Assembly: GCA_001782235.1 (NCBI GenBank)
Contig: MFOC01000007.1
Span: 315,909 to 379,908, forward strand
Length of the DNA: 64,000 bases
DNA from: Candidatus Levybacteria bacterium RIFCSPHIGHO2_02_FULL_40_18
GTDB taxonomy: Bacteria; Patescibacteriota; Microgenomatia; Levybacterales; GWA1-39-11
Direction: 5' to 3'
The position numbers and the translations under genes are program-made. The notes beneath the pieces are model-generated. The model searched no databases and had not been told where the DNA came from. It saw nothing but the letters and a program-made list of their open reading frames with translations. The first letter of the stretch is position 1; each line of letters opens with the position of its first letter. Below are positions 8,560 through 54,878 of this stretch, one piece after another.

Positions 8560-8845
8560 TTATCCTCTTGCAAAATAAGTTTTCACATAATATATTAAAA
8601 ACGGACTCAGCTTTTCGTAGATCATCTTTTTTTGTGGCGCACTTGTTCAGCAAGGAGATGATCTGAGCTGAGTCCAACAGGTGCGCCATCTTAGATTTAG
8701 GAATACATTAAAAAAATTTTCGCGTTTTCTTTCACTTCTTTTTGTTCTCAAGTTTCCGCCGTTTTCAAAAAGGGCTTTGAAACAATCCGCGCGACCCCCC
8801 ACGCGCGGAAGATTTTTGAGCTTCCTGCAACAGACTCTCTCTGTG

Positions 8846-8916
8846 TCGGGATGTGGGGAATTGAACCCCATCCACACGCACCCCATGCGCGCATTCTACC
8901 GTTAAACTACACCCCG
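8846..8916 (-). tRNA. tRNA-Pro (anticodon GGG)
   Basis: Manual fold of the reverse complement: acceptor CGGGGTG/CATCCCG (one G-U pair), D arm GTTT-AACGGTA-GAAT, anticodon stem CGCGC/GCGTG with loop AUGGGGU (U33, anticodon GGG, G37), T arm GGGG-TTCAATT-CCCC, discriminator A. No CCA is encoded. Confidence 0.8.
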
Positions 8917-13133: not shown

Positions 13134-13236
13134 AGAACTCAAAACTTAAAACTCAAAACTCAAATCTACAACTTTAAATCTTAAAACTTTTTAGATTTGA
13201 GATGTAGTTTTGACATTTGACATTTGAGATTTGACA
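13134..13236. repeat. family-B imperfect palindromic heptamer repeat (aaactca/aaactta ... agatttga/catttga) filling the gap between the two transketolase cistrons
   Basis: The left arm (aactcaaaacttaaaactcaaaactcaaatctacaactt) and right arm (agatttgagatgtagttttgacatttgacatttgagatttgac) are roughly reverse complements. Related fragments occur inside tsaE (54603-54650) and the SpoU gene (24781-24817). Confidence 0.75.
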
Positions 13237-13240
13237 TGAA

Positions 13241-14105: not shown

Positions 14106-15440
14106 CTATTTTCTTAGTACTATTATTAAATCAGATACATTGGAAGGAAGTCTACCCGTAGTAAGATTATCCCGAGTTTTCTTGAAGAACTCAAAACTAT
14201 TGTTGGTTTCCAAATATTTTAGGGGTTCAATCTCTAATTTTTTTGCTCTCTCGATAGTTTTATAGTCGCCAATTGCGCCTGCATGTTCGGTATTGTCCCA
14301 TCCGTCTGAAGCGAACGAACAAATTGTAATATCGCGGCCGACATGCTCAAGTGCTCCTAAAACTAGTTCTTGGTTTCGCCCGCCGCGACCCTCCCTCTGG
14401 GCCAGAGACTCTCTGGGCCGGAGACTCTTTTTTGCTACGTGAACGGTTGTTTCTCCCCCGCAAAGCAAGATCGAATTAAGATGAGTCTCAGAAATCAATT
14501 TTTTGCCTGCATCTCGTGCCTCTGATTCAAATCGATCGGAGAAAATCTCTGCATGGTAGCCTAGGTCTTTGGCCCCTTTTTGCATTGCAGAAAGTGCCGT
14601 ATCGTTACTTAAAACGATTATATTACGAACATTCTCAAAATATTTTTTATCATGAGGATTTTCAATAAAAGCGTCACGCGTCAAATTTAATTCTTGTTCG
14701 AGGTTATATTTTTTAATGATCCCAATTGCATCTTCAATTGTTGTTGGATCGTAGGCTGTTGGGCCTGAGGCAATGGTTGATAGATCATTTCCGGGAACAT
14801 CTGAATAAATCAAAGCTGCCACTTTTGCGGGGTACAAAATTTGAGCTAATCCTCCGCCTTTAACGTCCGATAAGTGCTTTCTGACTATATTCATTTCGGT
14901 AATATTTGCTCCGGATTTCAAAAGCGCTTTGCCGACCTCTATTTTTTGTTCGAGTGATATTGTATGCGGATGAACAAACATGGCAGACCCGCCGCCGCAA
15001 ATAACAACCAAAACAAGATCTTTTTCGGAAAGATTCGAAAGCCTTTCGAGAACCTTTTGGGTGAATTTAAAATTCGTTTCGGACGGAAGAGGATGAGTTC
15101 CCTTAGTAAATTCAAGTTTTTCAAGGCGAGGCCTTGCATGAGCTTGCCTTTCAGGGATGCTAGTATCGATCACGTAACCCTCCGTTAATTTGTCGGAAAT
15201 TAGATTTTCGAGTATCTTAGCATTCTCGGCCGAACCTTTTCCAAAGCCCAAGATAAAGACTCGTTCGAAATCATCCAGATCGAATTCCTGATCGCCGATC
15301 GTCAAAATATTCCCGTGTCTGTGAACGCTTGTTCTGAAAACCTCCTCCGGCTGAATCGAAGCAAGTGCAGCCTCAACAAGCTCTAAAATAATTTTTCTTT
15401 CAGGCGTCTTTGCAATCTCGGAGAAATTCTTAATAAACAT
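14106..15440 (-). CDS. glycerate 2-kinase (MOFRL family)
   Basis: MOFRL-family motifs (VFILGFGKGSAENAK; LVLVVICGGGSAMF; LLCGGETTVHV). Confidence 0.75.
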   Translation of the reverse strand: MFIKNFSEIAKTPERKIILELVEAALASIQPEEVFRTSVHRHGNILTIGDQEFDLDDFERVFILGFGKGSAENAKILENLISDKLTEGYVIDTSIPERQAHARPRLEKLEFTKGTHPLPSETNFKFTQKVLERLSNLSEKDLVLVVICGGGSAMFVHPHTISLEQKIEVGKALLKSGANITEMNIVRKHLSDVKGGGLAQILYPAKVAALIYSDVPGNDLSTIASGPTAYDPTTIEDAIGIIKKYNLEQELNLTRDAFIENPHDKKYFENVRNIIVLSNDTALSAMQKGAKDLGYHAEIFSDRFESEARDAGKKLISETHLNSILLCGGETTVHVAKKSLRPRESLAQREGRGGRNQELVLGALEHVGRDITICSFASDGWDNTEHAGAIGDYKTIERAKKLEIEPLKYLETNNSFEFFKKTRDNLTTGRLPSNVSDLIIVLRK

Positions 15441-15669
15441 AGGCAGTTACAGTTTATCGAGATTGAGTTTTGTTGTCCAATTTGAATGTGATATAATACT
15501 TTTGGTTGAGCCAATGGAAATGTGGATTCAAACGATTCGAATTCTTCGAATAGCCTAATTTTAGGCAGGTCTTCTTTTGGCCACAACACATTGTCATCCC
15601 CGACTTGATTGGGGAACCAGAAATAAAATAAAACTAGATTCCCGCTTTCGCGGGAATGACAAATCAACT

Positions 15670-24555: not shown

Positions 24556-25086
24556 TTATTTATTTCTCTCGAGGGATTTGTAAAGGACTATTGCCAGACT
24601 GACTATTACATTGAGGCTGACATTTACGCCAAACAGGGGGAGTTCGACAATTTGATCTGAGATTTCAAGAGTCTCTTTTGAGACGCCGCGGGTCTCATTT
24701 CCAACTACTAGCGCGATAGGGAATTCGTAATCTGCCTCCGTATATGGAATACTTTTCGAAGATTGCTCAATCGCAATCACTTTTAGATTTAAGATGTAAG
24801 ATTTAAGATGTAAGATGGCGGATTTGGTGTCAACGACATGCTCCCAGTCGACCCATTCGGTTGTGTTAATCGAAGCCTTCTTGATTCGGGAATTTGGCGG
24901 GGTTTCAGTGTATCCGCAAAGCAAAAGTTTTTTTGCAGCAACTGCATCAGCCAATCGAAAAATTGCACCGACATTATATGTATCCAAGACGTTATCAAGA
25001 ACTATATAAATATCGTTTTTTTTGATTTTACCTTTTTCTTTTTCAGAGGATGAGCTCCGCCTCAATTTATATGCGTTTAACTTCAT
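24556..25086 (-). CDS. SpoU/TrmH-family RNA 2'-O-methyltransferase
   Basis: SPOUT motifs (IYIVLDNVLDTYNVGAIFRLADA ... ALVVGNETRGVS ... LNVIVSLAIVLY). Confidence 0.75.
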   Translation of the reverse strand: MKLNAYKLRRSSSSEKEKGKIKKNDIYIVLDNVLDTYNVGAIFRLADAVAAKKLLLCGYTETPPNSRIKKASINTTEWVDWEHVVDTKSAILHLKSYILNLKVIAIEQSSKSIPYTEADYEFPIALVVGNETRGVSKETLEISDQIVELPLFGVNVSLNVIVSLAIVLYKSLERNK

Positions 25087-27152
25087 TGTTCACTTGGGGC
25101 AGGGGTAGATGGCACAGCTTGTTTCACAAGTTGGGCTTTAGTCCACACCGCAAAATCACACTTTGGATAGTTGCCGCATCCGTAAAATGTTCGGCCGCGG
25201 CGCGTCCTTTTCAGTACCATCTTACCTTGGTCGCGAGGGCATAAGTAACCCGATTCCTCAGCAAAAGATTCACGGAATTTGCAGTTCGGAAAATTAGAGC
25301 ATGCCTTAAACTTACCGAATCTACCGATTCTAATAACAACGTCACCGCCGTCGAGCGGACATTTTTCGCCTGTTTTTTCAAGCTCAATCTTAATTTTTTT
25401 CTCCTCTTGCGCATCTTTTAAGTGCTTCTCGAATGGTCCGTAAAATTCTTTTATAACCGGAACCCAGTCCGTTTTACCGTCTGCTACCTCATCAAGTTTG
25501 TCTTCCATAGACGCTGTAAAAGGAATATCATCTATTGTTGAGAAGTTTTTAACCAAAAAATCATTCACCAGAGTCCCTATCTCAGTTGGCTTAAAGCGAT
25601 TTTCTTCTTTTTCAACATAAAATCTTGCTTCTATTGTTGAAATAATCGGCGCATAAGTTGAGGGACGTCCGATTCCGTGTTCCTCAAGCGCACTAATCAA
25701 AGATGCTTCACTATATCTTGGAGGCGGATTGGTATTGTGAGAGGTGATATTAATTTTGCGAAGATCCAATTTTTCATCTTTTTGAAGTTCCGGTATCAAC
25801 TGCTCTTCATCCTCGTAAAACCAGATTTTAAGAAATCCATCGAATTTTATCACGCGACCATTTGCTACAAAATCATAAGCTTTGCTATCTTTCACCTGGG
25901 CCTCGACTCGGGTAGAAAGGAATACTGCATCTGCCATTTGAGTTGATAGAGCTCTTTTATATATAAGACTGTAAAGCTTTGCAAAATCTCTTCCGAGTTT
26001 TGCAGTGACCGTCTCTTCATCTTCGAATAAATTAGTGGGGCGTATTGCTTCGTGTGCTTCTTGAGCAAGCTTTGATTTCGTATGGTAAATTCGGGGTGTT
26101 TGAGGTAGGTATTTTCCCCCAAAATTTTTCTCAATATAATTTCTTGCAGCGGATATAAATTCATTCGAAAGATTGTAGGAATCGGTTCTGTGATAGCTTA
26201 TAAAGCCTTCTTCATATAATCTCTGTGCTAAGCCCATGGTTCGTTTACTTGTGTAACCGAAACGGCGAGAAGCCTCAATCTGAAGAAGCGATGTGGTAAA
26301 GGGAGGATAAGGCGCACGTTTTGTTTCTTTTTGAATTACGTCTGTAACAACAAAATCTTTATTTGCAAGATCGTTCTGGATTGATTCGGCATCCGTGTTC
26401 GACAATCGGGTTTCGGCATATTTGTATTCCCCATCATAAAGAGGTAGGGTAGTTGTTTTTTCAATCGGCTCATCGTTTATCTTAACCAACTCAAAAGTTA
26501 TCGGCTGGTTTTCTCCCCTCCAGGCCGGAGGCCCTCCAGGGCCGGAGGCCTGTTTATTAACGACGACAAAAACTCTATAAAATTCTGTGCTTTTGAATTT
26601 TTCAATTTCGCGCTCACGCTCAACAATTAATCGAAGCGCTATAGACTGAACGCGACCGGCTGACAATCCCTTTTTGATTTTCATCCAAAGAATTGGCGAA
26701 AGCTTGTATCCTACAACTCGATCTAAAACACGTCTTCCGGTTTGCGCGGCAACAAGATTCATGTCTATCTCCTTTGGATGTTCCAAGGCTTCGTTAATTG
26801 CGGTAGGCGTGATTTCATGGAAGACAATTCGATCGAACTTAGTTTTCTTATTTTCCTCCGATAAAACCGTTTTGAGATGATATGAGATTGCTTCTCCTTC
26901 GCGGTCCGGATCTGTTGCCAAAATTATTCGATCGACATCTTTTACTTCCTCAATTAAACCCTCAACAATTTTCCTCTTATCTTTTGGGATTACATACGAG
27001 GGTGTGAAGTCATGATCAATATCCACCCCCAAAGCCCCCTTTGGCAAATCTCGAATATGCCCCATCGATGCCTCTATTTTGTACTTTTCTCCAAGAAACC
27101 TCGATAATGTTTTCGCCTTAGTGGGAGACTCGACAAGTATTAAAGATTTCAT
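25083..27152 (-). CDS. topA: DNA topoisomerase I
   Basis: Toprim N-terminus (LILVESPTKAKTLSRFLG...GHIRDLP), the Topo IA core, and C-terminal Zn-ribbon repeats (CPLDGG..., CPRDQGKM..., CGNYPKC). Confidence 0.9.
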   Translation of the reverse strand: MKSLILVESPTKAKTLSRFLGEKYKIEASMGHIRDLPKGALGVDIDHDFTPSYVIPKDKRKIVEGLIEEVKDVDRIILATDPDREGEAISYHLKTVLSEENKKTKFDRIVFHEITPTAINEALEHPKEIDMNLVAAQTGRRVLDRVVGYKLSPILWMKIKKGLSAGRVQSIALRLIVEREREIEKFKSTEFYRVFVVVNKQASGPGGPPAWRGENQPITFELVKINDEPIEKTTTLPLYDGEYKYAETRLSNTDAESIQNDLANKDFVVTDVIQKETKRAPYPPFTTSLLQIEASRRFGYTSKRTMGLAQRLYEEGFISYHRTDSYNLSNEFISAARNYIEKNFGGKYLPQTPRIYHTKSKLAQEAHEAIRPTNLFEDEETVTAKLGRDFAKLYSLIYKRALSTQMADAVFLSTRVEAQVKDSKAYDFVANGRVIKFDGFLKIWFYEDEEQLIPELQKDEKLDLRKINITSHNTNPPPRYSEASLISALEEHGIGRPSTYAPIISTIEARFYVEKEENRFKPTEIGTLVNDFLVKNFSTIDDIPFTASMEDKLDEVADGKTDWVPVIKEFYGPFEKHLKDAQEEKKIKIELEKTGEKCPLDGGDVVIRIGRFGKFKACSNFPNCKFRESFAEESGYLCPRDQGKMVLKRTRRGRTFYGCGNYPKCDFAVWTKAQLVKQAVPSTPAPSEQ

Positions 27153-27282: not shown

Positions 27283-28377
27283 TCAGTCGAAGTAGAGGTC
27301 GGGAAGGGCGGTGATTTTGTGCCAGTCGACTGGTTTGTAATTTAGGAGGGCATAGGCGCCGATCATGGCGGCATTGTCTGTAGCGTAAGTTTTTGCAGGA
27401 GCGGAAATCTTAGCCGTTGGCAGTTGGCTTTTGGCTGTTAGCTCGAACTGTTGGCGGAGGGTTTGGTTTGCGGATACGCCGCCACCAAGAAGAATATTGT
27501 TAATTTTGTACAATTTTGCTGCTCGAATAGTTTTTTTGATCAACACAGCAAAAATTGCCTCTTGTAAAGCATGGCAAACCTCATTAATTAACCTTTCGGT
27601 TAAATGTTTTTTAACAATAAATCTTGATATTTCAGTCTTTAGTCCTGAAAACGAAAAATCAAAATCCTCGGTATTAATTAATGGACTATGAAATTTGGCT
27701 GTTGGTTGTTGGTTGTTAGCTCGGCGCTCGATTTCGGGACCGGCCGGATAAGATAGGCCAAGAATTCGGCCGACTTTGTCGAGTGCTTCTCCTGCCGCGT
27801 CGTCTCGAGTCCCGCCAAGCCATTTGAATTTAGATGCTGATTCGAACAACAACAAATCAGTATGGCCTCCGGAGACAATAAGGCCGATGAAGGGGAACAT
27901 TTTTCCAGTATTCAGTATTGAGTATTCAGTATTGAGTATAAAATTAGCAAAGAGGTGTGCGAGGAGATGATGAACGGGAATTATTGGCTTGTCGAATGCA
28001 AAAGATAGGGTTTTTGCTGTTTCGACTCCAACGAGAAGTGAACCTATTAAACCGGGGCCACTGGTGACGGCAATGGCGTCGATAGACTTTTTAAGTATTT
28101 CATTTGCTCGTTCGAACTGTTTCGAATTGTTCAATTGTTTGATTGCTTCATTGTTGATCCCTTCGGAATTAAGAAGTGCGCGGACAATAACCGGAATTAT
28201 TGCTTTGATTTGTTCGCGGGCTGCGAATTCCGGAATTATTCCGCCAGTTTTGGCATGGAGACTTGAAGAGGTGGCGGTAACATTTGATAAAACCCTTACG
28301 AATTGTTCGTTGTCTTTTTTTTCAACTACAGCCGCCCCCGTTTCATCACAGCTAGTCTCAAGACTTAGTATTATCAT
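27283..28377 (-). CDS. tsaD: tRNA N6-adenosine threonylcarbamoyltransferase
   Basis: MIILSLETSCDETGAAVV, HHLLAH, SGGHT and DFSFSGLKT, all Kae1/TsaD hallmarks. The start is taken at MIILSL; the track ORF extends further upstream. Confidence 0.88.
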   Translation of the reverse strand: MIILSLETSCDETGAAVVEKKDNEQFVRVLSNVTATSSSLHAKTGGIIPEFAAREQIKAIIPVIVRALLNSEGINNEAIKQLNNSKQFERANEILKKSIDAIAVTSGPGLIGSLLVGVETAKTLSFAFDKPIIPVHHLLAHLFANFILNTEYSILNTGKMFPFIGLIVSGGHTDLLLFESASKFKWLGGTRDDAAGEALDKVGRILGLSYPAGPEIERRANNQQPTAKFHSPLINTEDFDFSFSGLKTEISRFIVKKHLTERLINEVCHALQEAIFAVLIKKTIRAAKLYKINNILLGGGVSANQTLRQQFELTAKSQLPTAKISAPAKTYATDNAAMIGAYALLNYKPVDWHKITALPDLYFD

Positions 28378-28610
28378 AAATTGTTTCGCCTGCCCCGTAT
28401 AAGCGTCCTCGCGACGCGAGGACGAAGACCTCGGGAGTAAGTAAGCTTTGTGCGGGGTCACAAGAGGTCTCAATAGCCAAAACTCTCATTGAAATAAAGA
28501 AATTGGTTGTAAGAAATTGGAAAATGGTTATGGAAACTAGATATTGGAAATTGGTTTGTTTTAAAAAACTATTTTCTATTTTCCTATAACTATTTTCTAT
28601 CTTCTCTTTG

Positions 28611-29081
28611 CTATATTCCCTTGAAAGTAATCTTGATGCCTTTTTTAATTCCCAATTTCTTAACCTGTCCGGCGTTTAATTCCAAAACTCGATTTACGGG
28701 TACGTCAGGAATGTAAATAGTTAAATTTGGAGTCTGGGCGCCTGGCGAGGCATTTTCGACGATATAAACGACCATATCGTCATCAATAAATATAATATCT
28801 ATGGGAAACTTCATGTCTCTCATCCAAAAGCCGTATGTCCCCTTTTTTTCAAAAATAAATAACATTCCCTGGTCTTCCGGTAAATTATTCCTTCCCGAGA
28901 GCCCCTTCGTTCTATCTTTGTCAGATTTTGCAAGAATCAGGCTTATCTTTTTGTTATTGACTTGCGCCTCGGCGCCCCCTTTAAACGGAATTAAAGATGG
29001 CAGATTTCCTCCGGCTTTAAAAACTGCAAGGAGAATAACTGCAATTATAAGTGCCACATAAACTATAATTAATTTCTTCAT
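28611..29081 (-). CDS. DUF192 domain protein
   Basis: Signal/TM N-terminus plus the DUF192 core (GMLFIF...GFWMRDMKFPIDIIFID). Confidence 0.65.
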   Translation of the reverse strand: MKKLIIVYVALIIAVILLAVFKAGGNLPSLIPFKGGAEAQVNNKKISLILAKSDKDRTKGLSGRNNLPEDQGMLFIFEKKGTYGFWMRDMKFPIDIIFIDDDMVVYIVENASPGAQTPNLTIYIPDVPVNRVLELNAGQVKKLGIKKGIKITFKGI

Positions 29082-29584: not shown

Positions 29585-29735
29585 ATAGTTAATAAGAAAT
29601 TGGTTGTTGGAAATAAGAAAATGGTAATAGAAATTAGATATTAGAAATTGGTTTTTATTTATTTTTATTTAACTATTGTCTATTTTCTACTTTCCATTAC
29701 TAATTTCCATTTTCCTATAACTATTTTCTAATATA
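29585..29735. repeat. family-A palindromic heptamer-periodic intergenic repeat (~150 bp), copy A3; near-identical inverted copy at 46495-46650, shorter variants at 12030-12150 and 28487-28612
   Basis: The reverse complement of 46502-46648 aligns almost base for base with 29592-29733. Shared blocks are tagaaattgg, aaaatggtaatagaaa, ccattactaatttccattttcc and ataactattttcta. Confidence 0.85.
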
Positions 29736-29739
29736 TTAA

Positions 29740-31161
29740 TTATTCTTTGGTTCCTCGCAAGAAAATCGCCTGCCATGGTCTGTATGAAGAAACGAAAACA
29801 TCGTTAATGACTACTTGTCCGTCTTTTGTGACGGTTCTTGAGAATACGGATTTTCCTCCCGGTGCCGCAAAATCCACTTGTTTCTCAACCCCTTTTGGCA
29901 AATTGGGATCGTCTTGATAAAGAGGGGGCGGAGCAGGTACAACATTTGTTACAACCGGTTGCGTTACCACGACTTTTCTTCCATCAGACTTCCCATAGAT
30001 AGTAAATGTGAGACTCATATTAATAGGGTCAATTAATCCCTGAATTAGTACGTGATTTCCGGTGTCATTTTTAAATTTGAAGTCAACGCTTGGAGCATAC
30101 ACCGTTGCGTCAAATCCGGGCAGAGAGTCTTGTTCGTAGTATCCTACCCGGTACGCATGTGCACGTCTTTCCGTAATTGGCAGGCCCGAGTTTAAAATTG
30201 CCCGAAATAAAGTTGTGGAAACCTGGCAAACTCCGCCTCCGTCTCCAAGCACGGTTCTCCCGTTCTGGATAACATATGCCTCCTTATACCCCGTGAATTT
30301 TGAGACATCGCCAAGAGCTTTATTAAATGAGAATTCTTCACCCGGAGCAATAAGTACTCCATTGATTCGTGATGTTGCTAAGTTTATGTTATAAAATCTA
30401 TTTGCAATTGACCCCACAAAAATAGATTTACCGGCACCAATATCCTCAACTATCCCTAAATTATTTGCCTCCTCTGTTGTCACATCAGGTTTTAAGATTT
30501 TAATTGGGACTTCAATCGCTATGGTTTTTATGTCTCTTTCTCTTATAATTTCTTTGATCCTTTTTCTTAGCTCTTTCTTCACAGCATCAATGTCAATAGT
30601 TTTTCCTTCACTTGATTCCTGGAATGCTACGACCCTGTTATTCTCCACTTTAAATTGAGCATCTTGGGGATCCACGTGAATTACTTTTCGGATTGGTTCA
30701 AGTTCCGCGGTAAGTTTTTCCTCATCAAGTGTATAAGTTGAGGAGAGAAAAGTGCCATTAATATAGGAAGAAAGCGTTATGTAGGTATCGCTGAAAAGAT
30801 TTTTTGTTTTTCCAAGGCTAAGCGCCTGTTCTGTTATTAGGTTGATGTCATATCCGATGTCAAGTTTTTTGGCCGAGACTGTCGCGACATATGAATCTTG
30901 AGAAAAAATAAAAGTGTTCTCCCCAATTTTCTGATTCTTCGCAAGAAAGATTTTCTCAATGTCGGCGCGGGATTTTTCTCCGATATAAACATTATCGATA
31001 AAGATGCCCGGAATGACCCTGTTTTTAAAGGTATGTTGAAAATAAAAAAGAATAAGAGAAGAAAGCACCATGCTCGCCAAAATAAATCCTATCAAAAACC
31101 AATAAGACGATTTTGCGACATGGTAAATCGTTTGTTTTTTACGGGGTGAAAGTCTTAGCAT
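29740..31161 (-). CDS. VanW-family protein
   Basis: N-terminal TM helix and the VanW core motif (GGGVCQVSTTLFRAILNSGLPITERRAHAY). Confidence 0.75.
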   Translation of the reverse strand: MLRLSPRKKQTIYHVAKSSYWFLIGFILASMVLSSLILFYFQHTFKNRVIPGIFIDNVYIGEKSRADIEKIFLAKNQKIGENTFIFSQDSYVATVSAKKLDIGYDINLITEQALSLGKTKNLFSDTYITLSSYINGTFLSSTYTLDEEKLTAELEPIRKVIHVDPQDAQFKVENNRVVAFQESSEGKTIDIDAVKKELRKRIKEIIRERDIKTIAIEVPIKILKPDVTTEEANNLGIVEDIGAGKSIFVGSIANRFYNINLATSRINGVLIAPGEEFSFNKALGDVSKFTGYKEAYVIQNGRTVLGDGGGVCQVSTTLFRAILNSGLPITERRAHAYRVGYYEQDSLPGFDATVYAPSVDFKFKNDTGNHVLIQGLIDPINMSLTFTIYGKSDGRKVVVTQPVVTNVVPAPPPLYQDDPNLPKGVEKQVDFAAPGGKSVFSRTVTKDGQVVINDVFVSSYRPWQAIFLRGTKE

Positions 31162-37919: not shown

Positions 37920-39182
37920 ATGCTTGATATTAAGTTTATTCGGGAGAATCCGGATAAAGTTCGTGAAGGGGCAAAAAATAAAAATATCAATGTTCCGATT
38001 GATGAAATACTTCGTCTAGACCAAGAACATCGCGAATTGTCTCGGATACTCCAAGAATTGTATACCCAAAGAAACCGCGCCGCAAAAGAAAGAGATATTG
38101 AAGGCGGTCGGGAGGTTAAAGCAGAGGTTGATTCTAGCGAAGATAAACTTGGGAAAATCAAAGAAAGATTGGATGAACTTCTTTATGCCGTACCAAATTT
38201 GCCGGCCCTTGATGTAAAAATAGGAAAAGACGAATCGGAAAATGAGATTATTCGAAAAGTTGGTTCGCCGAAAAAGTTTTCATTCAAAGTTCGTGACCAT
38301 GTTGAGTTGGGAGAATTGCTTGAAATTATCGACCTTGAACGAGCAGCAAAAGTTTCCGGTACCCGATTCGCATATTTAAAAAATGAAGGAGTTCTTCTTG
38401 AATTCGCACTCGCCCAATTTGCCTTAGACAGCTTAATAAAGGAAGGATTTATTCCGATAATTCCGCCCGTGCTTATTAAGACGGAAACAATGAAAAAGGT
38501 CGGTTATATGGAACACGGTGGGGATGAGGACATGTTTCATATCGAAAAAGATGGTTTGACCCTCGTGGGAACTGCCGAGCATTCAATCGTCGCAATGCAT
38601 CAAGACGAAACATTTTTGGAACGTGATCTACCTGTAAGATATGTCGGGTTTTCATCTGCCTTCAGGCGTGAAGCGGGATCTTACGGCAAAGACACTCGGG
38701 GAATTCTTCGCGTCCACCAATTTGATAAAGTAGAAATGGTTTCATATACGACTCCTGAAAAGAGCGATAGTGAACAAGACTATCTTTTGAATATTGAAGA
38801 GAAGTTTTTTCAGGCGCTCAAGATCCCTTATCAAGTTGTCAAAATGTGTACAGCCGATTTAGGATTTGTTCAGGCCAAAAAATATGATATTGAAGCATGG
38901 ATTCCGTCTCAAGAGAAATATCGAGAGATGACCTCCGCATCGCATCTTACAGATTTTCAAGCAAGACGGTTGAATATTAAATTCCTGCCTGCCGGCAGGC
39001 AAGGCCAAAAAGGTTTGGAAAAAGAATTCATACACACTCTCAACGCCACAGGTTTTGCAATTGGCCGAACTTTAATTGCAATTCTTGAAAATTATCAAGA
39101 AAAGGATGGTTCAGTTGTTGTACCAGAAATTTTGCGAAATTACGTAAATATAGATAAGATTTCACCAAAGAAATTAAAATAG
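37920..39182 (+). CDS. serS: serine--tRNA ligase
   Basis: N-terminal coiled-coil arm and the class II core (FRREAGSYGKDTRGILRVHQFDKVE). Confidence 0.9.
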   Translation: MLDIKFIRENPDKVREGAKNKNINVPIDEILRLDQEHRELSRILQELYTQRNRAAKERDIEGGREVKAEVDSSEDKLGKIKERLDELLYAVPNLPALDVKIGKDESENEIIRKVGSPKKFSFKVRDHVELGELLEIIDLERAAKVSGTRFAYLKNEGVLLEFALAQFALDSLIKEGFIPIIPPVLIKTETMKKVGYMEHGGDEDMFHIEKDGLTLVGTAEHSIVAMHQDETFLERDLPVRYVGFSSAFRREAGSYGKDTRGILRVHQFDKVEMVSYTTPEKSDSEQDYLLNIEEKFFQALKIPYQVVKMCTADLGFVQAKKYDIEAWIPSQEKYREMTSASHLTDFQARRLNIKFLPAGRQGQKGLEKEFIHTLNATGFAIGRTLIAILENYQEKDGSVVVPEILRNYVNIDKISPKKLK

Positions 39183-39737: not shown

Positions 39738-42512
39738 ATGCTTGGTGTTTTGTCTAAGTTTTTTGACTCAAACGAGCGAGAGATTAAAAAATTTTTACCC
39801 ATTGTTGATGAGATCAATGCTCTTTCGGAGAAAACTAAAAAACTTCGCGATTCTGATTTTCCAAAAAAAACAGAAGAACTAAAAAAAAGAATAGAAAAAG
39901 GCGAAAGTATTTTCATGGTTTTACCTGAAGCTTTCGCTCTTGTACGTGAAGCTTCTCTAAGAACCACGGGTTTACGGCCATATGATGTTCAACTAATCGC
40001 GGCCACTGTTCTTTCTCAAGGCAAAGTCGCAGAGCAAAAAACAGGAGAAGGAAAAACTCTTTCGGCAGTCCCCGCCCTATACTTGAACGCCCTTACAGGC
40101 AATACGGTTCATCTTGTTACCGTAAATGACTATCTTGCTCGTCGTGACGCAGGATGGATGGGGGCAATTTTTGACTTTTTAGGAATGAACGTTTCCTCAA
40201 TAATTTCCGATGCTTCTTTTATTTACGATACCAAATACACAGATGAATCGGCACAGGACTTCAGGCTCCTTCATCTCAGGCCTATATCTCGAAAAGAAGC
40301 ATATCAAGCCAATATAGTTTACGGAATCAATTCTGAATTTGGATTCGATTATCTTCGCGACAACATGGTCTTTAATAGCGAACAATTGGCTCAAACAGGA
40401 CACACATATGCAATTATTGATGAGGTAGACTCGGTTTTAATCGATGAAGCAAGAACGCCCCATATAATCTCAATGCCGGACGCTACGCCTTCCCAAAAAT
40501 ATTATGAATATGCAAAAATTGTCGATAAACTCAACAAGGAAATAGACTATAAAGTAGATGAGAAGACAAGAACTGCACACTTAACAGATCACGGGATTGA
40601 AAAGGTTGAAAAGCTTTACGGCGTCAAAGATATATATGAAAAGGATTTTGATACGGTTTATCATATAGAAGCCGCTCTTAAGGCAAATACCCTGTTTCAT
40701 AAAGACCGCGATTACATTGTCCGCGACAACCAAGTTATTCTAGTTGATGAGTTTACCGGAAGACTTCTTGAAGGAAGGCGTTTGTCAGAAGGTCTCCATC
40801 AGGCAATTGAGGCAAAGGAAGGCGTCGCGATCCAGCAAGAGTCAAAAACTCTTGCAACTGTTTCTCTTCAAAACTACTTCAGAATGTATGAAAAGATTGC
40901 GGGAATGACGGGAACAGCCGTAACTGAGGCTGAGGAGTTTCAAAAGATCTACAAACTTGATGTAGTTTCGATCCCTACTCATAAAGAGATGATTCGCGAA
41001 GATCTTGGCGATCAGATCTATAAGACTACGCGCGCAAAAGTGGCTGCAGTAGTTAGGGAGATTGAGGAAGCACATAAAAAAGGACAGCCGGTGTTAGTTG
41101 GCACTACATCAATTGATAAGAACGAAATAATTTCAGAATATCTAAAAAGAAAAGGGATCCTGCACGAGGTTTTAAATGCTAAAAATCACATTCGGGAGGC
41201 AATGATTATTCAGAATGCGGGTAAAAAAGGCGCGGTTACAGTTGCGACAAATATGGCTGGTCGAGGGGTAGATATTATTTTAGGAGGCCAGCCTCCATCA
41301 CAATTTGATATTGCCCACAAGGGAAAAAGCGGTCAGAAAAAACTTCGTGAAGATATGGAGAGATGGCAGAAGGAGCATGATGAGGTGGTCTCGCTTGGCG
41401 GGCTTTATTTAATTGGTACCGAAAAACACGAATCAAGAAGAATTGATAATCAGCTAAGGGGAAGATCTGGCCGCCAAGGAGATCCCGGAAAATCTATGTT
41501 CATTGTTTCTTTGGAGGATGATCTTATGAGAGTCTTTGGGGGAGAGCAGATTTCAAACCTAATGACTCGGTTTAATTTTCCGGAGGATCAACCACTCGCC
41601 CATGGTTTAGTTTCGCGTGTTATAGAACAAGCGCAAGTCAAGGTAGAAGGGTTTAATTTTGAAGCAAGAAAACACCTTCTTGATTATGACGATGTTTTAA
41701 ACAAGCAAAGAGAAATTATCTATAAAATGAGACAAGGAGTAGTAGGGAATGAAGCCGCCGGCCCAGAGGCCTCTGGCCAGAGGGATGATATAGTTGAAAT
41801 AGTTTTAGGGAAAGTCGCGAGCGTAATTGCAAATAATGTTCAATTTAATCTTTCAACAGAAACCCAAGAAGACGGGCGCAAAACCATAATTTCGGAATTC
41901 GCAAGCATTGTCCCCTTTGATGAACATTCGCAAGAACATCTCTATAAACAAATTCAGCAATATCAAACCGCAGAACAAATTTCGGACTTTTTAATCGGAA
42001 TAGCAAAGCAAATTTCTAAGAAATGGGAAGAGCAATTTGGCCGCGATCATTTGGCTCACGCATATAAAATCGTATTTCTATCAACAATCGATAATCTCTG
42101 GATGGACCATTTAACCTCGATGGAAGATCTTAGAACAGGAATCGGGCTACGGGGCTACGGACAGAGAGATCCTCTTATCGAATACAAAAACGAGGCATTT
42201 ACCATGTTTGAGCGTTTAATTTCGCAAATTGACGACGGTATAGCTCACCGCGCTTTTCGAATTAACATCGGAGAAATTCCTCCTCCGGCAGTCAGAGTAA
42301 ATATACAAGCAAACGTTCCGGAGTCAGAAGTGGGAGAAAAAGCTGAGAAGGTTAGCCGAGCTCCGCAAATCGCGAATCGAACAGAAATAGCTTCGAATAA
42401 TAATTTGAATGGTACTACAGGTGTCGAAAAAAAGAAAATCGGCCGCAACGACCCCTGCCCTTGCGGTTCGGGAAAGAAGTGGAAAAAGTGCCACTATCCC
42501 AACCTCCCATAA
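39738..42512 (+). CDS. secA: preprotein translocase ATPase SecA
   Basis: SecA DEAD motor motifs and the C-terminal Zn finger CPCGSGKKWKKCH. Confidence 0.92.
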   Translation: MLGVLSKFFDSNEREIKKFLPIVDEINALSEKTKKLRDSDFPKKTEELKKRIEKGESIFMVLPEAFALVREASLRTTGLRPYDVQLIAATVLSQGKVAEQKTGEGKTLSAVPALYLNALTGNTVHLVTVNDYLARRDAGWMGAIFDFLGMNVSSIISDASFIYDTKYTDESAQDFRLLHLRPISRKEAYQANIVYGINSEFGFDYLRDNMVFNSEQLAQTGHTYAIIDEVDSVLIDEARTPHIISMPDATPSQKYYEYAKIVDKLNKEIDYKVDEKTRTAHLTDHGIEKVEKLYGVKDIYEKDFDTVYHIEAALKANTLFHKDRDYIVRDNQVILVDEFTGRLLEGRRLSEGLHQAIEAKEGVAIQQESKTLATVSLQNYFRMYEKIAGMTGTAVTEAEEFQKIYKLDVVSIPTHKEMIREDLGDQIYKTTRAKVAAVVREIEEAHKKGQPVLVGTTSIDKNEIISEYLKRKGILHEVLNAKNHIREAMIIQNAGKKGAVTVATNMAGRGVDIILGGQPPSQFDIAHKGKSGQKKLREDMERWQKEHDEVVSLGGLYLIGTEKHESRRIDNQLRGRSGRQGDPGKSMFIVSLEDDLMRVFGGEQISNLMTRFNFPEDQPLAHGLVSRVIEQAQVKVEGFNFEARKHLLDYDDVLNKQREIIYKMRQGVVGNEAAGPEASGQRDDIVEIVLGKVASVIANNVQFNLSTETQEDGRKTIISEFASIVPFDEHSQEHLYKQIQQYQTAEQISDFLIGIAKQISKKWEEQFGRDHLAHAYKIVFLSTIDNLWMDHLTSMEDLRTGIGLRGYGQRDPLIEYKNEAFTMFERLISQIDDGIAHRAFRINIGEIPPPAVRVNIQANVPESEVGEKAEKVSRAPQIANRTEIASNNNLNGTTGVEKKKIGRNDPCPCGSGKKWKKCHYPNLP

Positions 42513-42624: not shown

Positions 42625-43269
42625 ATGGTTACAGTGCCTGAAGCTACTAAAAAGATTGTCGAACGTTCAAGATATCTTTCAGAGGCTATCTCGAAAGGTC
42701 TTATAAACTATTCGTCTCTTGCACGCTATATAAAGCCTGAACTTGAGGAAATGCTTTTAAAAAAAGTAAGCATCGCATCTATAATTATGGCTTTAAACCG
42801 CCTCGAATCTGATTTTCAACCAAAGTTTACGCAAAGCAATATTTTTAAAACTCCTCCGGAAATCACAGTTCGCTCAAATCTGATCTTAGCAGGGCTGTCG
42901 AATATTGATGTTCAAGGGCTATCGATACTTATCTCGCGTGACACTAATTCTCGTTCGCTTTTTTTAAAAAATCAGGGGATACACGAGGCCTCGTTTATTA
43001 TGAGTCAAGATTTATTCGAGAAATACAAAAATACTATAGAAAGCAAGAATCCTTTGGTGTTTCAGGATAAAGTTTCGACCATTACAATTTACCTACCCAA
43101 GGAAGCGCAGGAAACCTCTGGAATCTATTATTTTTTTCTAAAATCCCTTGCCTGGGAGGGTATAAACATACTCGAATTAGTTTCAACACCACAAGAACTT
43201 ACCATTGTTGTTTCCGACCATGATGTCGAGAGAGCGTTTGGTATTATTAAGTCCCTGTTCGCTTCCTAA
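42625..43269 (+). CDS. hypothetical protein (possible ACT-like regulatory domains)
   Basis: 214 aa with two beta-alpha-beta-beta-alpha-beta-like segments. Weak call. Confidence 0.35.
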   Translation: MVTVPEATKKIVERSRYLSEAISKGLINYSSLARYIKPELEEMLLKKVSIASIIMALNRLESDFQPKFTQSNIFKTPPEITVRSNLILAGLSNIDVQGLSILISRDTNSRSLFLKNQGIHEASFIMSQDLFEKYKNTIESKNPLVFQDKVSTITIYLPKEAQETSGIYYFFLKSLAWEGINILELVSTPQELTIVVSDHDVERAFGIIKSLFAS

Positions 43270-44750
43270 TCTTTCGAATCATAATTGACTTTGTACAAAT
43301 AAGCAGTTCCGATTTGCTTCTCAAGTCTTATTTTCCCAACCTTTTCCATATTTTTTACTCCCTCGCGAAAGTTCCGGGGGCTTTCGAGAAGCTGAATGAG
43401 AGTTTGTTGCTCGCTTAAGTTAACCATTATATATTCGGCTTCTTTTGGGAAATCAAGCCACCAGCAGAGCTTTCTTCCGCAGGGATTATTCTCAATTTCA
43501 TGTTCGCGAGGATATATTAGATAGATTTGGTTTCTGTGAGAAATGTGGGGGACTATGTTTTGCGTCGAGGCAATACTCGCATCTTTCGGGATAGACGTGA
43601 TTAGCTTTCCCGTGTCTTTCATCCATTGTTCGCTCTTATAATATATTGGCTTTGACAATTTATTTAGAGCAAAGTGGAATTTGTATTGCAGGAGGAGAGC
43701 TACGGATACCATTACAATAGCAATAATCTCGGGCTTTCCCGCGAAGCGGGATCCCGCCCTGCGGGAAAATTTTCGCTTCAAAATATTAATTGCGTCCAGA
43801 GTCCCCAATAGTAAAAATGGTGCAAGGATTGCCCTGTGATGCATAAATGGGCTCCACATTCGTGCAAAGGCTTCGCCCGTTACAAAATATTGCGAAAGAT
43901 CAAGCGTAACCGCAAGAATTGCTCCGGGCGAGAGAAGAGGAAGAGCGGAGAACCAGGAAAATGAATAAAGCCACACCTGTTGTTTTTCTTGGCTATTGAA
44001 GAAATTGCTGATTAGATTTGCTGGCTGTAAGTCGATTTGAGGTGTATATTCGAACCCAATCGGCGAGAAATATCGAGTTAGAGTGATAGCGATAAGCGTT
44101 GCTAAAAAACCTCCAAAGATGAATCCTAGCGCAGCTTTACGATATTGTTTTTGAAACAAATAAATAAGTCCCAGAGAAGCAAGGGCGATGCCCATGTTTT
44201 CCTGTGTTAGAAGTAGTAAAATTATTGATCCGGATAACAGTTTCCAGTTTTTTGTTTCCAAAAAATAAGCGATCCAAGGAATTAAACCCACCCCTATTGC
44301 AACGGGATGAAAATCAAAAAATACCAAAAATTGTATTCCGTAGAAAAGGCTATAGACAAAGCTTAAACATAGGGCTACTAATGAAAAATAGCCTCTATTT
44401 CGCACCAAAAGAAATATGGGAAGCGCAGAAAGACTTACCCAAAACGCCTGAAAAAGCAATAAGATTCTTACATCATCCCAAATCCAAAAAAGGGGCGAAA
44501 GAAGCGGGAGAGTTAACGCAAGATGATCACCTAAGATAAACCTATTTTTAATTGTGTTGTATGGAGCCTGAAATTGAGAATATTGCCAGATGGATTGATC
44601 GTAAAGACCAAGATCAAAGGCGCCCGATTGGAAATTGTTATGTCGCACAATAGAAAGTGTCGAATAGAGCATAGTCAAAGTAACAATCCATACAAACAGA
44701 AGCTTTACGGAAGATCGTTCGATTAATGGAATAAATCCCTTAAGATTCAT
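43266..44750 (-). CDS. DUF2079-family integral membrane protein
   Basis: Polytopic protein with the DUF2079 N-terminal motif (RHNNFQSGAFDLGLYDQSIWQ). Confidence 0.7.
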   Translation of the reverse strand: MNLKGFIPLIERSSVKLLFVWIVTLTMLYSTLSIVRHNNFQSGAFDLGLYDQSIWQYSQFQAPYNTIKNRFILGDHLALTLPLLSPLFWIWDDVRILLLFQAFWVSLSALPIFLLVRNRGYFSLVALCLSFVYSLFYGIQFLVFFDFHPVAIGVGLIPWIAYFLETKNWKLLSGSIILLLLTQENMGIALASLGLIYLFQKQYRKAALGFIFGGFLATLIAITLTRYFSPIGFEYTPQIDLQPANLISNFFNSQEKQQVWLYSFSWFSALPLLSPGAILAVTLDLSQYFVTGEAFARMWSPFMHHRAILAPFLLLGTLDAINILKRKFSRRAGSRFAGKPEIIAIVMVSVALLLQYKFHFALNKLSKPIYYKSEQWMKDTGKLITSIPKDASIASTQNIVPHISHRNQIYLIYPREHEIENNPCGRKLCWWLDFPKEAEYIMVNLSEQQTLIQLLESPRNFREGVKNMEKVGKIRLEKQIGTAYLYKVNYDSKD

Positions 44751-46464: not shown

Positions 46465-46684
46465 ATTCAAATTCCTAAATTCTAAAAAATATATCAATAT
46501 ATTATTAGAAAATAGTTACAGGAAAATGGAAATTAGTAATAGAAAGTAGAAAATAGAAAGTAGTTAAATAAAAATAAATAAAAACCAATTTCTAATATCT
46601 AATTTCTATTACCATTTTCTTATTTCCAACAACCAATTTCTTATTGACAGAATTTTGATATTCGAATTTAGGATTTAAAATAGT

Positions 46685-54411: not shown

Positions 54412-54878
54412 CTCGCTCGGCGAGAGAAACAGAAGATTTAGGTTCAAAACTTGCTCATAACTTTCGAATCGGTAATATTATTGTGTTGACGGGCGAACTA
54501 GGGGCAGGAAAAACTACCTTTGTTCAGGGGGTAGGCAAAGCATTTAATATTAAAAGCCGAATCATTTCGCCTACATTTATTTTGGTTAGAAGACACAAAG
54601 TGAAACTCAAAACTCAAAACTCAAAACTCAAAACTACAACTCCCCTCGATGAAACTCGGGGCAAGCAAAACTTAAAAACTCTCTATCATATTGATTTATA
54701 TCGGCTGGAGGATTCGGAGGAAATTAAAAATTTGGGGCTCGAGGAGATTTTTGAAGATCCGAACGCCATTTTTTTCGTCGAGTGGGGAGAAAAACACGAG
54801 GAGTTGAAAGCCTCTTGGGAAATAAACTTCGAGATCCTTGAGAAAGACAAGAGACGTATAACGCTCAAACATGAATAA
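54390..54878 (+). CDS. tsaE: tRNA threonylcarbamoyladenosine biosynthesis ATPase TsaE
   Basis: P-loop LTGELGAGKTTFVQG and the conserved SPTF..V..H...LYHIDLYRL. Carries a ~20-aa insertion encoded by a heptamer tandem repeat. Confidence 0.85.
   Translation: MEETEFITRSARETEDLGSKLAHNFRIGNIIVLTGELGAGKTTFVQGVGKAFNIKSRIISPTFILVRRHKVKLKTQNSKLKTTTPLDETRGKQNLKTLYHIDLYRLEDSEEIKNLGLEEIFEDPNAIFFVEWGEKHEELKASWEINFEILEKDKRRITLKHE

Follow-up and report, generated by a model that had tools for sequence, protein, structure and literature searches.

The question raised by this locus is how a short, GC-rich palindromic sequence came to lie in frame inside an AT-rich gene for a conserved protein. The gene is glxK, which encodes a glycerate 2-kinase of the MOFRL / TM1585 type (positions 14106..15440, minus strand) within a 64,000-nucleotide stretch of Candidatus Levybacteria bacterium RIFCSPHIGHO2_02_FULL_40_18 (hereafter the window), and the sequence in question lies at 14391..14425 on the minus strand, reading GUCUCCGGCCCAGAGAGUCUCUGGCCCAGAGGGAG on the coding strand. 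We conclude, with a probability of about 0.8, that this segment is an insertion of a non-autonomous, mobile, GC-rich palindromic mini-element, presumably tolerated as a translated passenger loop and later decaying. The canonical form of the element, GCCGCCGGCCCAGAGGGCCTCTGGCCCGGAGGG, is 33 bp long and is made up of two 16-mers in tandem; jointly these give an imperfect palindrome of 31 nt, in which 12 of 15 model pairs are formed and two internal mismatches occur.

A preliminary description of this DNA had reported a GC-rich palindromic stretch with a direct repeat in glxK, and such a stretch is indeed found at that place: the 33 inserted bases have a GC content of 69.7%, against 40.9% for the remainder of the gene and approximately 39% for the window. 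The range originally given, 14378-14435, holds for the stretch itself, but not at its low end, where about 13 bases (14378-14390) fall outside the insert and are GC-rich because they code for the conserved GRGG motif. Internally, the insert is a tandem of two palindromic 16-mers. Tandem Repeats Finder returns a period of 16 nt over 14395-14428 (2.1 copies, 94% match, score 61), a repeat search of the same stretch returns the direct repeat CTCTGGGCCAGAGACT / CTCTGGGCCGGAGACT together with a 14-nt inverted repeat of 86% complementarity, and a degenerate 16-mer pattern (up to three mismatches) is matched three times, twice exactly, where 0.37 matches are expected from shuffled sequence. The copy in glxK differs from the canonical element at five positions, all five of them changes from G/C to A/T.

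The host gene is an intact open reading frame (ORF) of 444 amino acids with DUF4147 and MOFRL domains. Both Pfam families (PF13660 and PF05161, respectively) are found on all 120 of the best database relatives of its product, the named ones being mostly Candidatus Levybacteria, and the product matches solved structures with high significance (T. maritima glycerate kinase 2b8n, E = 3.5e-60; 1x3l, E = 1.1e-50). The columns of the GGETTV...GxGGRNQE motif are invariant in the glycerate kinase alignment. Relative to orthologues, the net insertion is 33 nt (14391-14423, minus strand) and codes for LRPRESLAQRE, residues 340-350, directly N-terminal of GxGGRNQE (...KKS-LRPRESLAQRE-GRGGRNQE, in the alignment context ...HVAKKS / GRGGRNQE). 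A MAFFT alignment of the 120 relatives lacks these 11 residues in 117 of them; the carriers are P0001 and the fragment P0058, both from the organism of the window itself, and P0012, which represents a separate lineage. The proposal that glxK carries an in-frame insertion is borne out by this comparison, since the segment does not align to conserved residues of MOFRL glycerate kinases in any of these 117 sequences, and by mapping onto structure, where it corresponds to a 12-column gap against 2b8n and to a segment of low predicted confidence. In an AlphaFold2 model built on a 72-sequence alignment (mean pLDDT 91), pLDDT falls below 50 only at residues 99-104 and 338-349, which are the two lineage-specific insertions of the protein, the latter lying between a strand (323-332) and a helix (355-367). 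The insert is thus predicted by the model to be a disordered loop of 11 residues that links the GGETTV strand to the GxGGRNQE helix; most likely it is a neutral or slightly harmful passenger, probably of little consequence for glycerate kinase itself. The other insertion, at 15135-15158 (residues 95-102, IPERQAHA), is common to P0002, and other glxK orthologues carry different inserts at the same spot, for example LPAGRQA, LPRPTSERVEAG and LPANALPEMLRNSKQAGTHEALQAG, which makes it another hot spot.

A scan of the window for GC-rich islands detected two sibling copies in other conserved genes. In topA (host ORF 25083..27152, minus strand), the copy at 26514..26549 (minus strand) includes a net insertion of 33 nt (26517-26549) coding for ASGPGGPPAWR, residues 202-212; in secA (host ORF 39738..42512, plus strand), a shortened copy at 41754..41786 (plus strand) corresponds to a net insertion of 30 nt (41754-41783) coding for AAGPEASGQR, residues 673-682. 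Orthologue alignments identify these inserts of 11 and 10 residues as likewise lineage-specific, with the topA site empty in L069 and the secA site empty in L070. The three inserts align base for base on their coding strands and are read in two frames, glxK in one and topA and secA in the other, and because these frames differ the similarity resides in the DNA and not in the protein. To avoid circularity, a covariance model (R2) was built from 14 copies in other genomes only and run on the window with filters off. It returned exactly three matches, in topA (44.9 bits, E = 6.7e-14), glxK (41.5 bits, E = 1.2e-12, covering the full length of the model, positions 1-35) and secA (34.4 bits, E = 6e-10), with the next match in the window at E = 0.8, all of these E-values being rough; a second model, R1, scored the glxK copy at 50.8 bits. 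The kinship of the glxK insert with those in topA and secA, which had been suspected from a shared core, is therefore real, all three being copies of one DNA family. Each is oriented as its host gene, and in the reverse orientation the scores stay below 14 bits. Gene orientation along the window changes from minus to plus at 31161/31205 and GC skew is strongly positive from about 32 kb, a combination that could mark a replication origin. If the origin does lie at about 31.2 kb, the three copies share their orientation relative to fork movement as well, although within the window orientation relative to replication is inseparable from gene orientation.

Beyond the window, a degenerate-pattern search of species-representative genomes, for which less than one chance match is expected at average composition, yielded 61 loci. 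Taking taxon labels as those of the records, 44 of the 61 reside in metagenome-assembled genomes (MAGs) labelled Thermodesulfobacteriota, Deltaproteobacteria or Syntrophaceae-like, several of which hold many copies; 8 are from Levybacteria, Woesebacteria or Patescibacteria; and 4 are from low-GC MAGs labelled Gammaproteobacteria, of which one (L025) has a flanking gene family in common with a Levybacteria locus and may be mislabelled. A few high-GC matches look like chance. All others have the common core GCC(G/A/T)CCGGCCC(A/G)GAGGGCCTCTGGCCCGGAGGG, which extends to positions that the pattern left free, and a second scan, of metagenomes with the GCCACC variant, added 26 further loci. Of the Thermodesulfobacteriota copies, 36 lie within a conserved unit, about 135 nt long, whose ends are inverted relative to each other. 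This unit (L008-L068) resembles a miniature inverted-repeat transposable element (MITE) and reads GTAAACCCCGTTAGAAAT...ATTTCTAACGGGGTAAA. It contains internal hairpins, one of which holds the 33-bp core in its loop; it occurs many times per MAG, and it has relatives that lack the core. Several other copies of the element lie in frame, in both orientations, within open frames of 276-612 amino acids (open frames in foreign loci being unverified as genes); one such copy lies close to the N-terminus of a frame that ends in ...LYTCGPTV, which we take to be cysteinyl-tRNA synthetase-like. A scan with Rfam 15 at gathering thresholds gave no match in 8 element-bearing loci, and an E-value scan of one ~135-nt Thermodesulfobacteriota unit gave sub-threshold chance matches only; the element is accordingly not a described RNA family. 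Searches of plasmid and phage collections with the core by blastn returned nothing meaningful (one partial match of 86% to a Variovorax plasmid, E = 0.1), and a scan of viral contigs for the element returned no matches. Three familiar classes of repeat were considered and rejected: the element is far too rare and too long for a DNA uptake sequence, its dispersed single copies do not form the arrays of CRISPR repeats, and the genes downstream of its copies are too unrelated to one another for a riboswitch.

The existence of this family bears directly on whether the insert could have been made in place, by slipped-strand or hairpin-templated duplication of a local 16-mer in glxK and, independently, in topA and secA. 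Palindromes promote slippage and template switching, and an insert that is a 2.1-copy tandem of a 16-mer is what such a process might leave behind. However, nothing in the empty site AAAAAAAGC|GGTCGA could have seeded the 16-mer, dozens of unrelated contexts in different phyla have the same 33-nt sequence with its two non-identical units, and the window copies match a model made from foreign copies with E-values of 1e-10 to 1e-14. Family membership excludes a slippage origin in glxK, and we consider a local origin of the three inserts very improbable. The earlier suggestion of a duplicated insertion accordingly stands in part: the 16-nt tandem is there, but the duplication did not arise in glxK, the two-unit architecture being built into a dispersed 33-bp element of many genomes.

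We also considered whether the insert might be an artefact of assembly or sequencing, for instance a chimeric read or a sequence of technical origin. Chimeras do occur in MAG assemblies, and the core is suspiciously identical across projects. Yet an independent European Nucleotide Archive (ENA) assembly (L002; 99.86% identity over 15.3 kb) contains the identical glxK insert, while an NCBI MAG from a different lineage (L001) has a diverged copy at the same site, and on these two observations an artefact is excluded. The copies are, moreover, diverged and in frame, they occur in records from many separate assemblies or projects (as judged by titles), and the plasmid and phage collections gave no meaningful match to them. 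The chance that the insert is artefactual is in our estimation negligible.

Evidence for insertion comes from sites that can be compared with and without the element. The nearest insert-free relative of the window's glxK (L003, 80% amino-acid identity) reads AAA AAA AGC | GGT CGA where the window reads AAA AAG AGT, then the 33 nt, then GGT CGC. In the closest available genome, GCA_016204525.1 (80-85% amino-acid identity), the glxK, topA and secA sites are all empty and a canonical copy is found at another place (L042). Core-less relatives of the MITE-like unit read CCCCGCTGCA^AGCAGCGGGG; where the core is present, the 33-mer and nothing more separates the two A's, so that the insertion into this hairpin loop measures exactly 33 nt. 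Inverted repeats likewise border the copies in L041 and L014 on both sides. The element has also been inserted into itself: in L023, 33 nt lie between the CCTCT and the GGCCC of a canonical copy and constitute a reverse-oriented copy of a GGCTC sub-family, with an extra 5' A, and a Woesebacteria locus contains this sub-family as a perfect 16 x 2 tandem. A net gain of 33 nt is thus seen in four independent cases, namely glxK, topA, the copy in the MITE-like loop and the nested copy.

The same sites have been filled more than once. A 33-nt copy lies at the identical glxK codon in P0012 (L001, 73% identity), with 27 of its 33 bases the same as in the window insert. Three separate lineages have the secA site filled; the DNA was compared for L004 and L005, whose inserts are AT-richer and barely alignable, which we read, from sequence, as decay. 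The topA loop is filled in four lineages, and the GC palindromes differ among the three that are sequenced. One of these, another Levybacteria contig (L006, P0122), has at the site of the window's topA insert a palindrome identical at 29 of 30 positions to an element elsewhere in the window, at 43727-43769. That element represents a second GC-palindrome family, TCCCGCGAAGCGGGATCCCGCCCTGCGGGA, and lies in frame in the ORF at 43266..44750 (minus strand), which encodes a membrane protein with Pfam DUF2079, where it is read as FSRRAGSRFAGKPE.

Several observations weigh against the mobile-element reading. One is that the inserts in the window and in L001 have identical shifted junctions, which could equally reflect one event spread by recombination. 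On that account there was a single glxK insertion, followed by homologous recombination among Levybacteria, or else an ancestral insertion with many precise losses, and the element is not now mobile here. The shared junctions are unusual (AGY|CKCCGG...GGGAG|GGT), 27 bases out of 33 agree, and in yeast mitochondria GC clusters are known to be exchanged by recombination (PMC4478555). The window insert nevertheless has flanks closer to those of insert-free L003 than to those of L001. The glxK carriers P0001 and P0012 belong to different clades, each with an insert-free sister, and so at least five precise losses would be needed under the ancestral variant; and neither variant explains the topA, secA, nested and hairpin-loop copies. 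A single glxK event of this kind therefore seems highly improbable as the whole account.

The other observations on this side are of a different nature. No presence/absence difference was found between near-identical strains, and one metagenome scan with the window's own secA flanks recovered neither empty nor filled alleles (0 in total), the organism being apparently absent there. Exact-pattern searching accounts in part for how nearly identical the core is between phyla, and simple neutral decay fails to explain this near-identity. An all-against-all BLASTP comparison of 581 ORFs from the 61 loci (8 kb each) revealed no recurrent neighbour besides spurious ORFs across the repeat itself, and 10 unannotated ORFs of the window, when scanned, showed no transposase domain. 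In L009, the ORFs between two inverted copies are ordinary metabolic genes. Finally, the microhomology discussed below fails at some sites, for example in L041, where the left flank is T.

Insertion of a mobile element, which we continue to prefer, also has to be weighed against retention for function, either as a selected loop beside GxGGRNQE or as an mRNA hairpin that, with its internal GGAGG, pauses translation or serves in regulation. Three findings are in keeping with a function: one codon position is filled in two glxK clades; positions 16 and 18 of the glxK copy have changed together from G-C to A-T; and at least nine independent copies abut a ribosome-binding site, lying immediately 5' of (G)AGGTGA-N4-12-ATG. 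Set against these, the copies are read in different frames in different genes to give unrelated peptides, the glxK loop, which 117 of 120 orthologues lack, is modelled as disordered, copies in secA relatives appear to decay, and the genes downstream of the ribosome-binding-site copies are mutually unrelated. RNA folding is unexceptional for composition (z = -1.6, -0.6 and +0.25 for the three window copies), and given such weak scores we do not use thermodynamics as an argument. Selection for a function is on balance an improbable reason for the presence of the insert, while the copies at ribosome-binding sites leave room for occasional co-option.

The canonical 33-mer is 11 codons long and free of stop codons in all six frames, so that a gene would remain readable after insertion in a permissive surface loop. 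The process that we envisage begins with insertion of the 33-bp unit at the DNA level into such a loop, after which selection would filter the insertions down to disordered loops; together, the properties of the unit and this filter would explain the hot spots. Surviving copies would then decay by substitutions and small indels.

How new copies are made can be approached through their flanks. Among 24 copies, the flanking base is a purine at -1 in 23 and at +1 in 22, the neighbourhood is 68% purine, and positions -4 to -1 are purine-rich with no fixed word; several copies beside ribosome-binding sites have AG|...|AG flanks, which are not general, and the 24 flanks show no consistent target-site duplication. 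If the element is mobile, the route that we favour, at somewhat less than even odds, is replication-associated template switching, in which a new copy would be copied in after priming by very short homology. Many targets either resemble the purine-rich 3' end of the element, GGAGGG(AG) (the Shine-Dalgarno core, AG^GAGG), or lie in hairpin loops, at which forks may stall. Junctions are shifted by 1-2 nt where microhomology is present: the glxK copy, which is without the first GC of the unit and has an extra AG at its end, begins at the third base of the unit, preceded by a GC of the target, and that AG is followed by a target GG. The main alternative to template switching would be a hairpin-handling enzyme acting in trans.

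In its behaviour the element is like the Rickettsia palindromic elements (RPEs) and the intragenic repetitive extragenic palindromic sequences (REPs), and it is a member of neither. RPEs (Ogata et al. 2000, reviewed in PMC2229807) are palindromic, non-autonomous, and found both between genes and in frame in genes for conserved proteins; an RPE-containing guanylate kinase is translated and active, and RPEs are 105-146 bp long and confined to Rickettsia (PMC2229807). The present element shares with them its palindromic character, its in-frame position inside genes and the extra peptide segment that results, and is set apart by its size (33 bp) and host (Levybacteria), as well as by the nearly identical core that it shows in MAGs of both Patescibacteria and Thermodesulfobacteriota. 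REPs are imperfect GC-rich palindromes of 20-40 bp with a conserved GTAG or CGTC tetranucleotide at one end; some are intragenic, many of them in replication and repair genes, and different REPs lie at about one site of recB in related Xanthomonas (PMC3733652). The 31-nt imperfect palindrome falls within this size range, and different palindromes at one site are also what we observe in topA, but the canonical unit contains neither GTAG nor CGTC on either strand. It also differs from REPs in that the window copies are few and all three inside genes, and in that the unit is a tandem of two 16-mers. Within the 8-kb loci around 61 copies, no tyrosine transposase (RAYT) or other gene recurs. A MITE of a DDE transposon is not indicated by the flanks of the 24 copies, which lack a consistent duplication, and a palindrome-associated element derived from IS200/IS605 is not indicated either, as there is no fixed tetra- or pentanucleotide target word.

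The GC clusters of yeast mitochondria, such as GC42, offer a further parallel: they are mobile GC-rich hairpins, tens of bp long, that are scattered through an AT-rich genome and can merge and nest, with no dedicated transposase and a mechanism described as unresolved (PMC4478555). Purine (AG) dinucleotides are found at their insertion points, and they are mostly intergenic, 42 bp long, with a putative AG target-site duplication (PMC4478555). The element described here resembles them as a GC-rich hairpin in an AT-rich genome, with AG at insertion points and with nesting, and departs from them in that its AG flanks are frequent yet inconsistent, that many copies are in coding sequence, and that it is bacterial and not mitochondrial. 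The small dispersed repeats (SDRs, 21-27 nt) of cyanobacteria, studied by Elhai et al., are reported to be very short palindromic repeats that appear as insertions within conserved sequences and also nested in other repeats; they would differ from the 33-bp element in sequence, size and taxa. We found no description of palindromic in-frame repeats or MITEs in the Candidate Phyla Radiation (CPR)/Patescibacteria in the literature, our coverage of which was limited, and this is not proof of novelty. A 33-bp frame-neutral palindromic mini-element common to CPR bacteria and Thermodesulfobacteriota is apparently undescribed.

The significance of these results rests more on the element family than on glycerate kinase. 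If our interpretation is true, selfish DNA inside protein-coding genes, known from Rickettsia and a few REP families, extends to the CPR, in a unit of exactly 11 codons whose length is a third to a quarter of that of an RPE. It would explain the lineage-specific GC-rich loops, rich in Gly, Pro, Arg and Ala, of conserved CPR proteins (glycerate kinase, topoisomerase I, SecA), which could otherwise be misread as functional novelties or annotation errors. A precisely delimited insert of 33 bp that has neither a consistent target duplication nor a linked enzyme would point to an insertion route not yet characterised, and the shared, near-invariant core would raise the question of DNA transfer between Patescibacteria and Thermodesulfobacteriota in anoxic groundwater or sediment. 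Speculatively, and we regard this fuller picture as unlikely, the 33-bp unit may be among the smallest bacterial mobile DNAs, frame-neutral and stop-free by construction, spreading without a transposase into single-stranded purine-rich or hairpin-loop DNA, and now exchanged between CPR bacteria (Levybacteria, Woesebacteria) and co-occurring Thermodesulfobacteriota. Were this picture true, the element would trace the flow of DNA, and perhaps also host association, in CPR episymbionts, and would repeatedly give rise to new loops in proteins and to hairpins in 5'-UTRs.

Other repeats and hot spots were seen in the window and its relatives. The topA orthologues have a second insertion hot spot near residue 410, with FAKASEDK, RATEDKA, GRRPGGAYGS and SAGGGSASAG, and the seryl-tRNA synthetase (SerRS) gene of the window has at 38990-39020 the segment FLPAGRQGQKGLEKEF, encoded by GCCGGCAGGCAAGGCC, where the A. 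aeolicus enzyme is five residues shorter; GC-rich mini-inserts thus seem to be characteristic of these genomes in general. A hairpin, TTCCCGCTTTCGCGGGAA, lies at 15636-15662 between glxK and an RNase Y-like gene, in the 5' region of the latter. It translates as SRFRGNDK / HSRESGNL in the listed ORFs and is presumably of a GC-rich palindrome type present in many genomes. Arrays of 7-nt tandem repeats occupy many intergenic spacers (for example 13136-13237, 24785-24825, 27906-27939, 28516-28622, 29610-29730, 46522-46626 and 54603-54642), and similar heptamer arrays stand beside element copies in other loci (for instance TAGGATT in L042 and GGGTATT in L030). One of the GC-rich islands is explained by a tRNA gene at 8846-8916 on the minus strand (Rfam RF00005, 52 bits), the only Rfam match in the whole window, and adjoining it at 8786-8809 is the palindrome TCCGCGCG-ACCCCCCA-CGCGCGGA.

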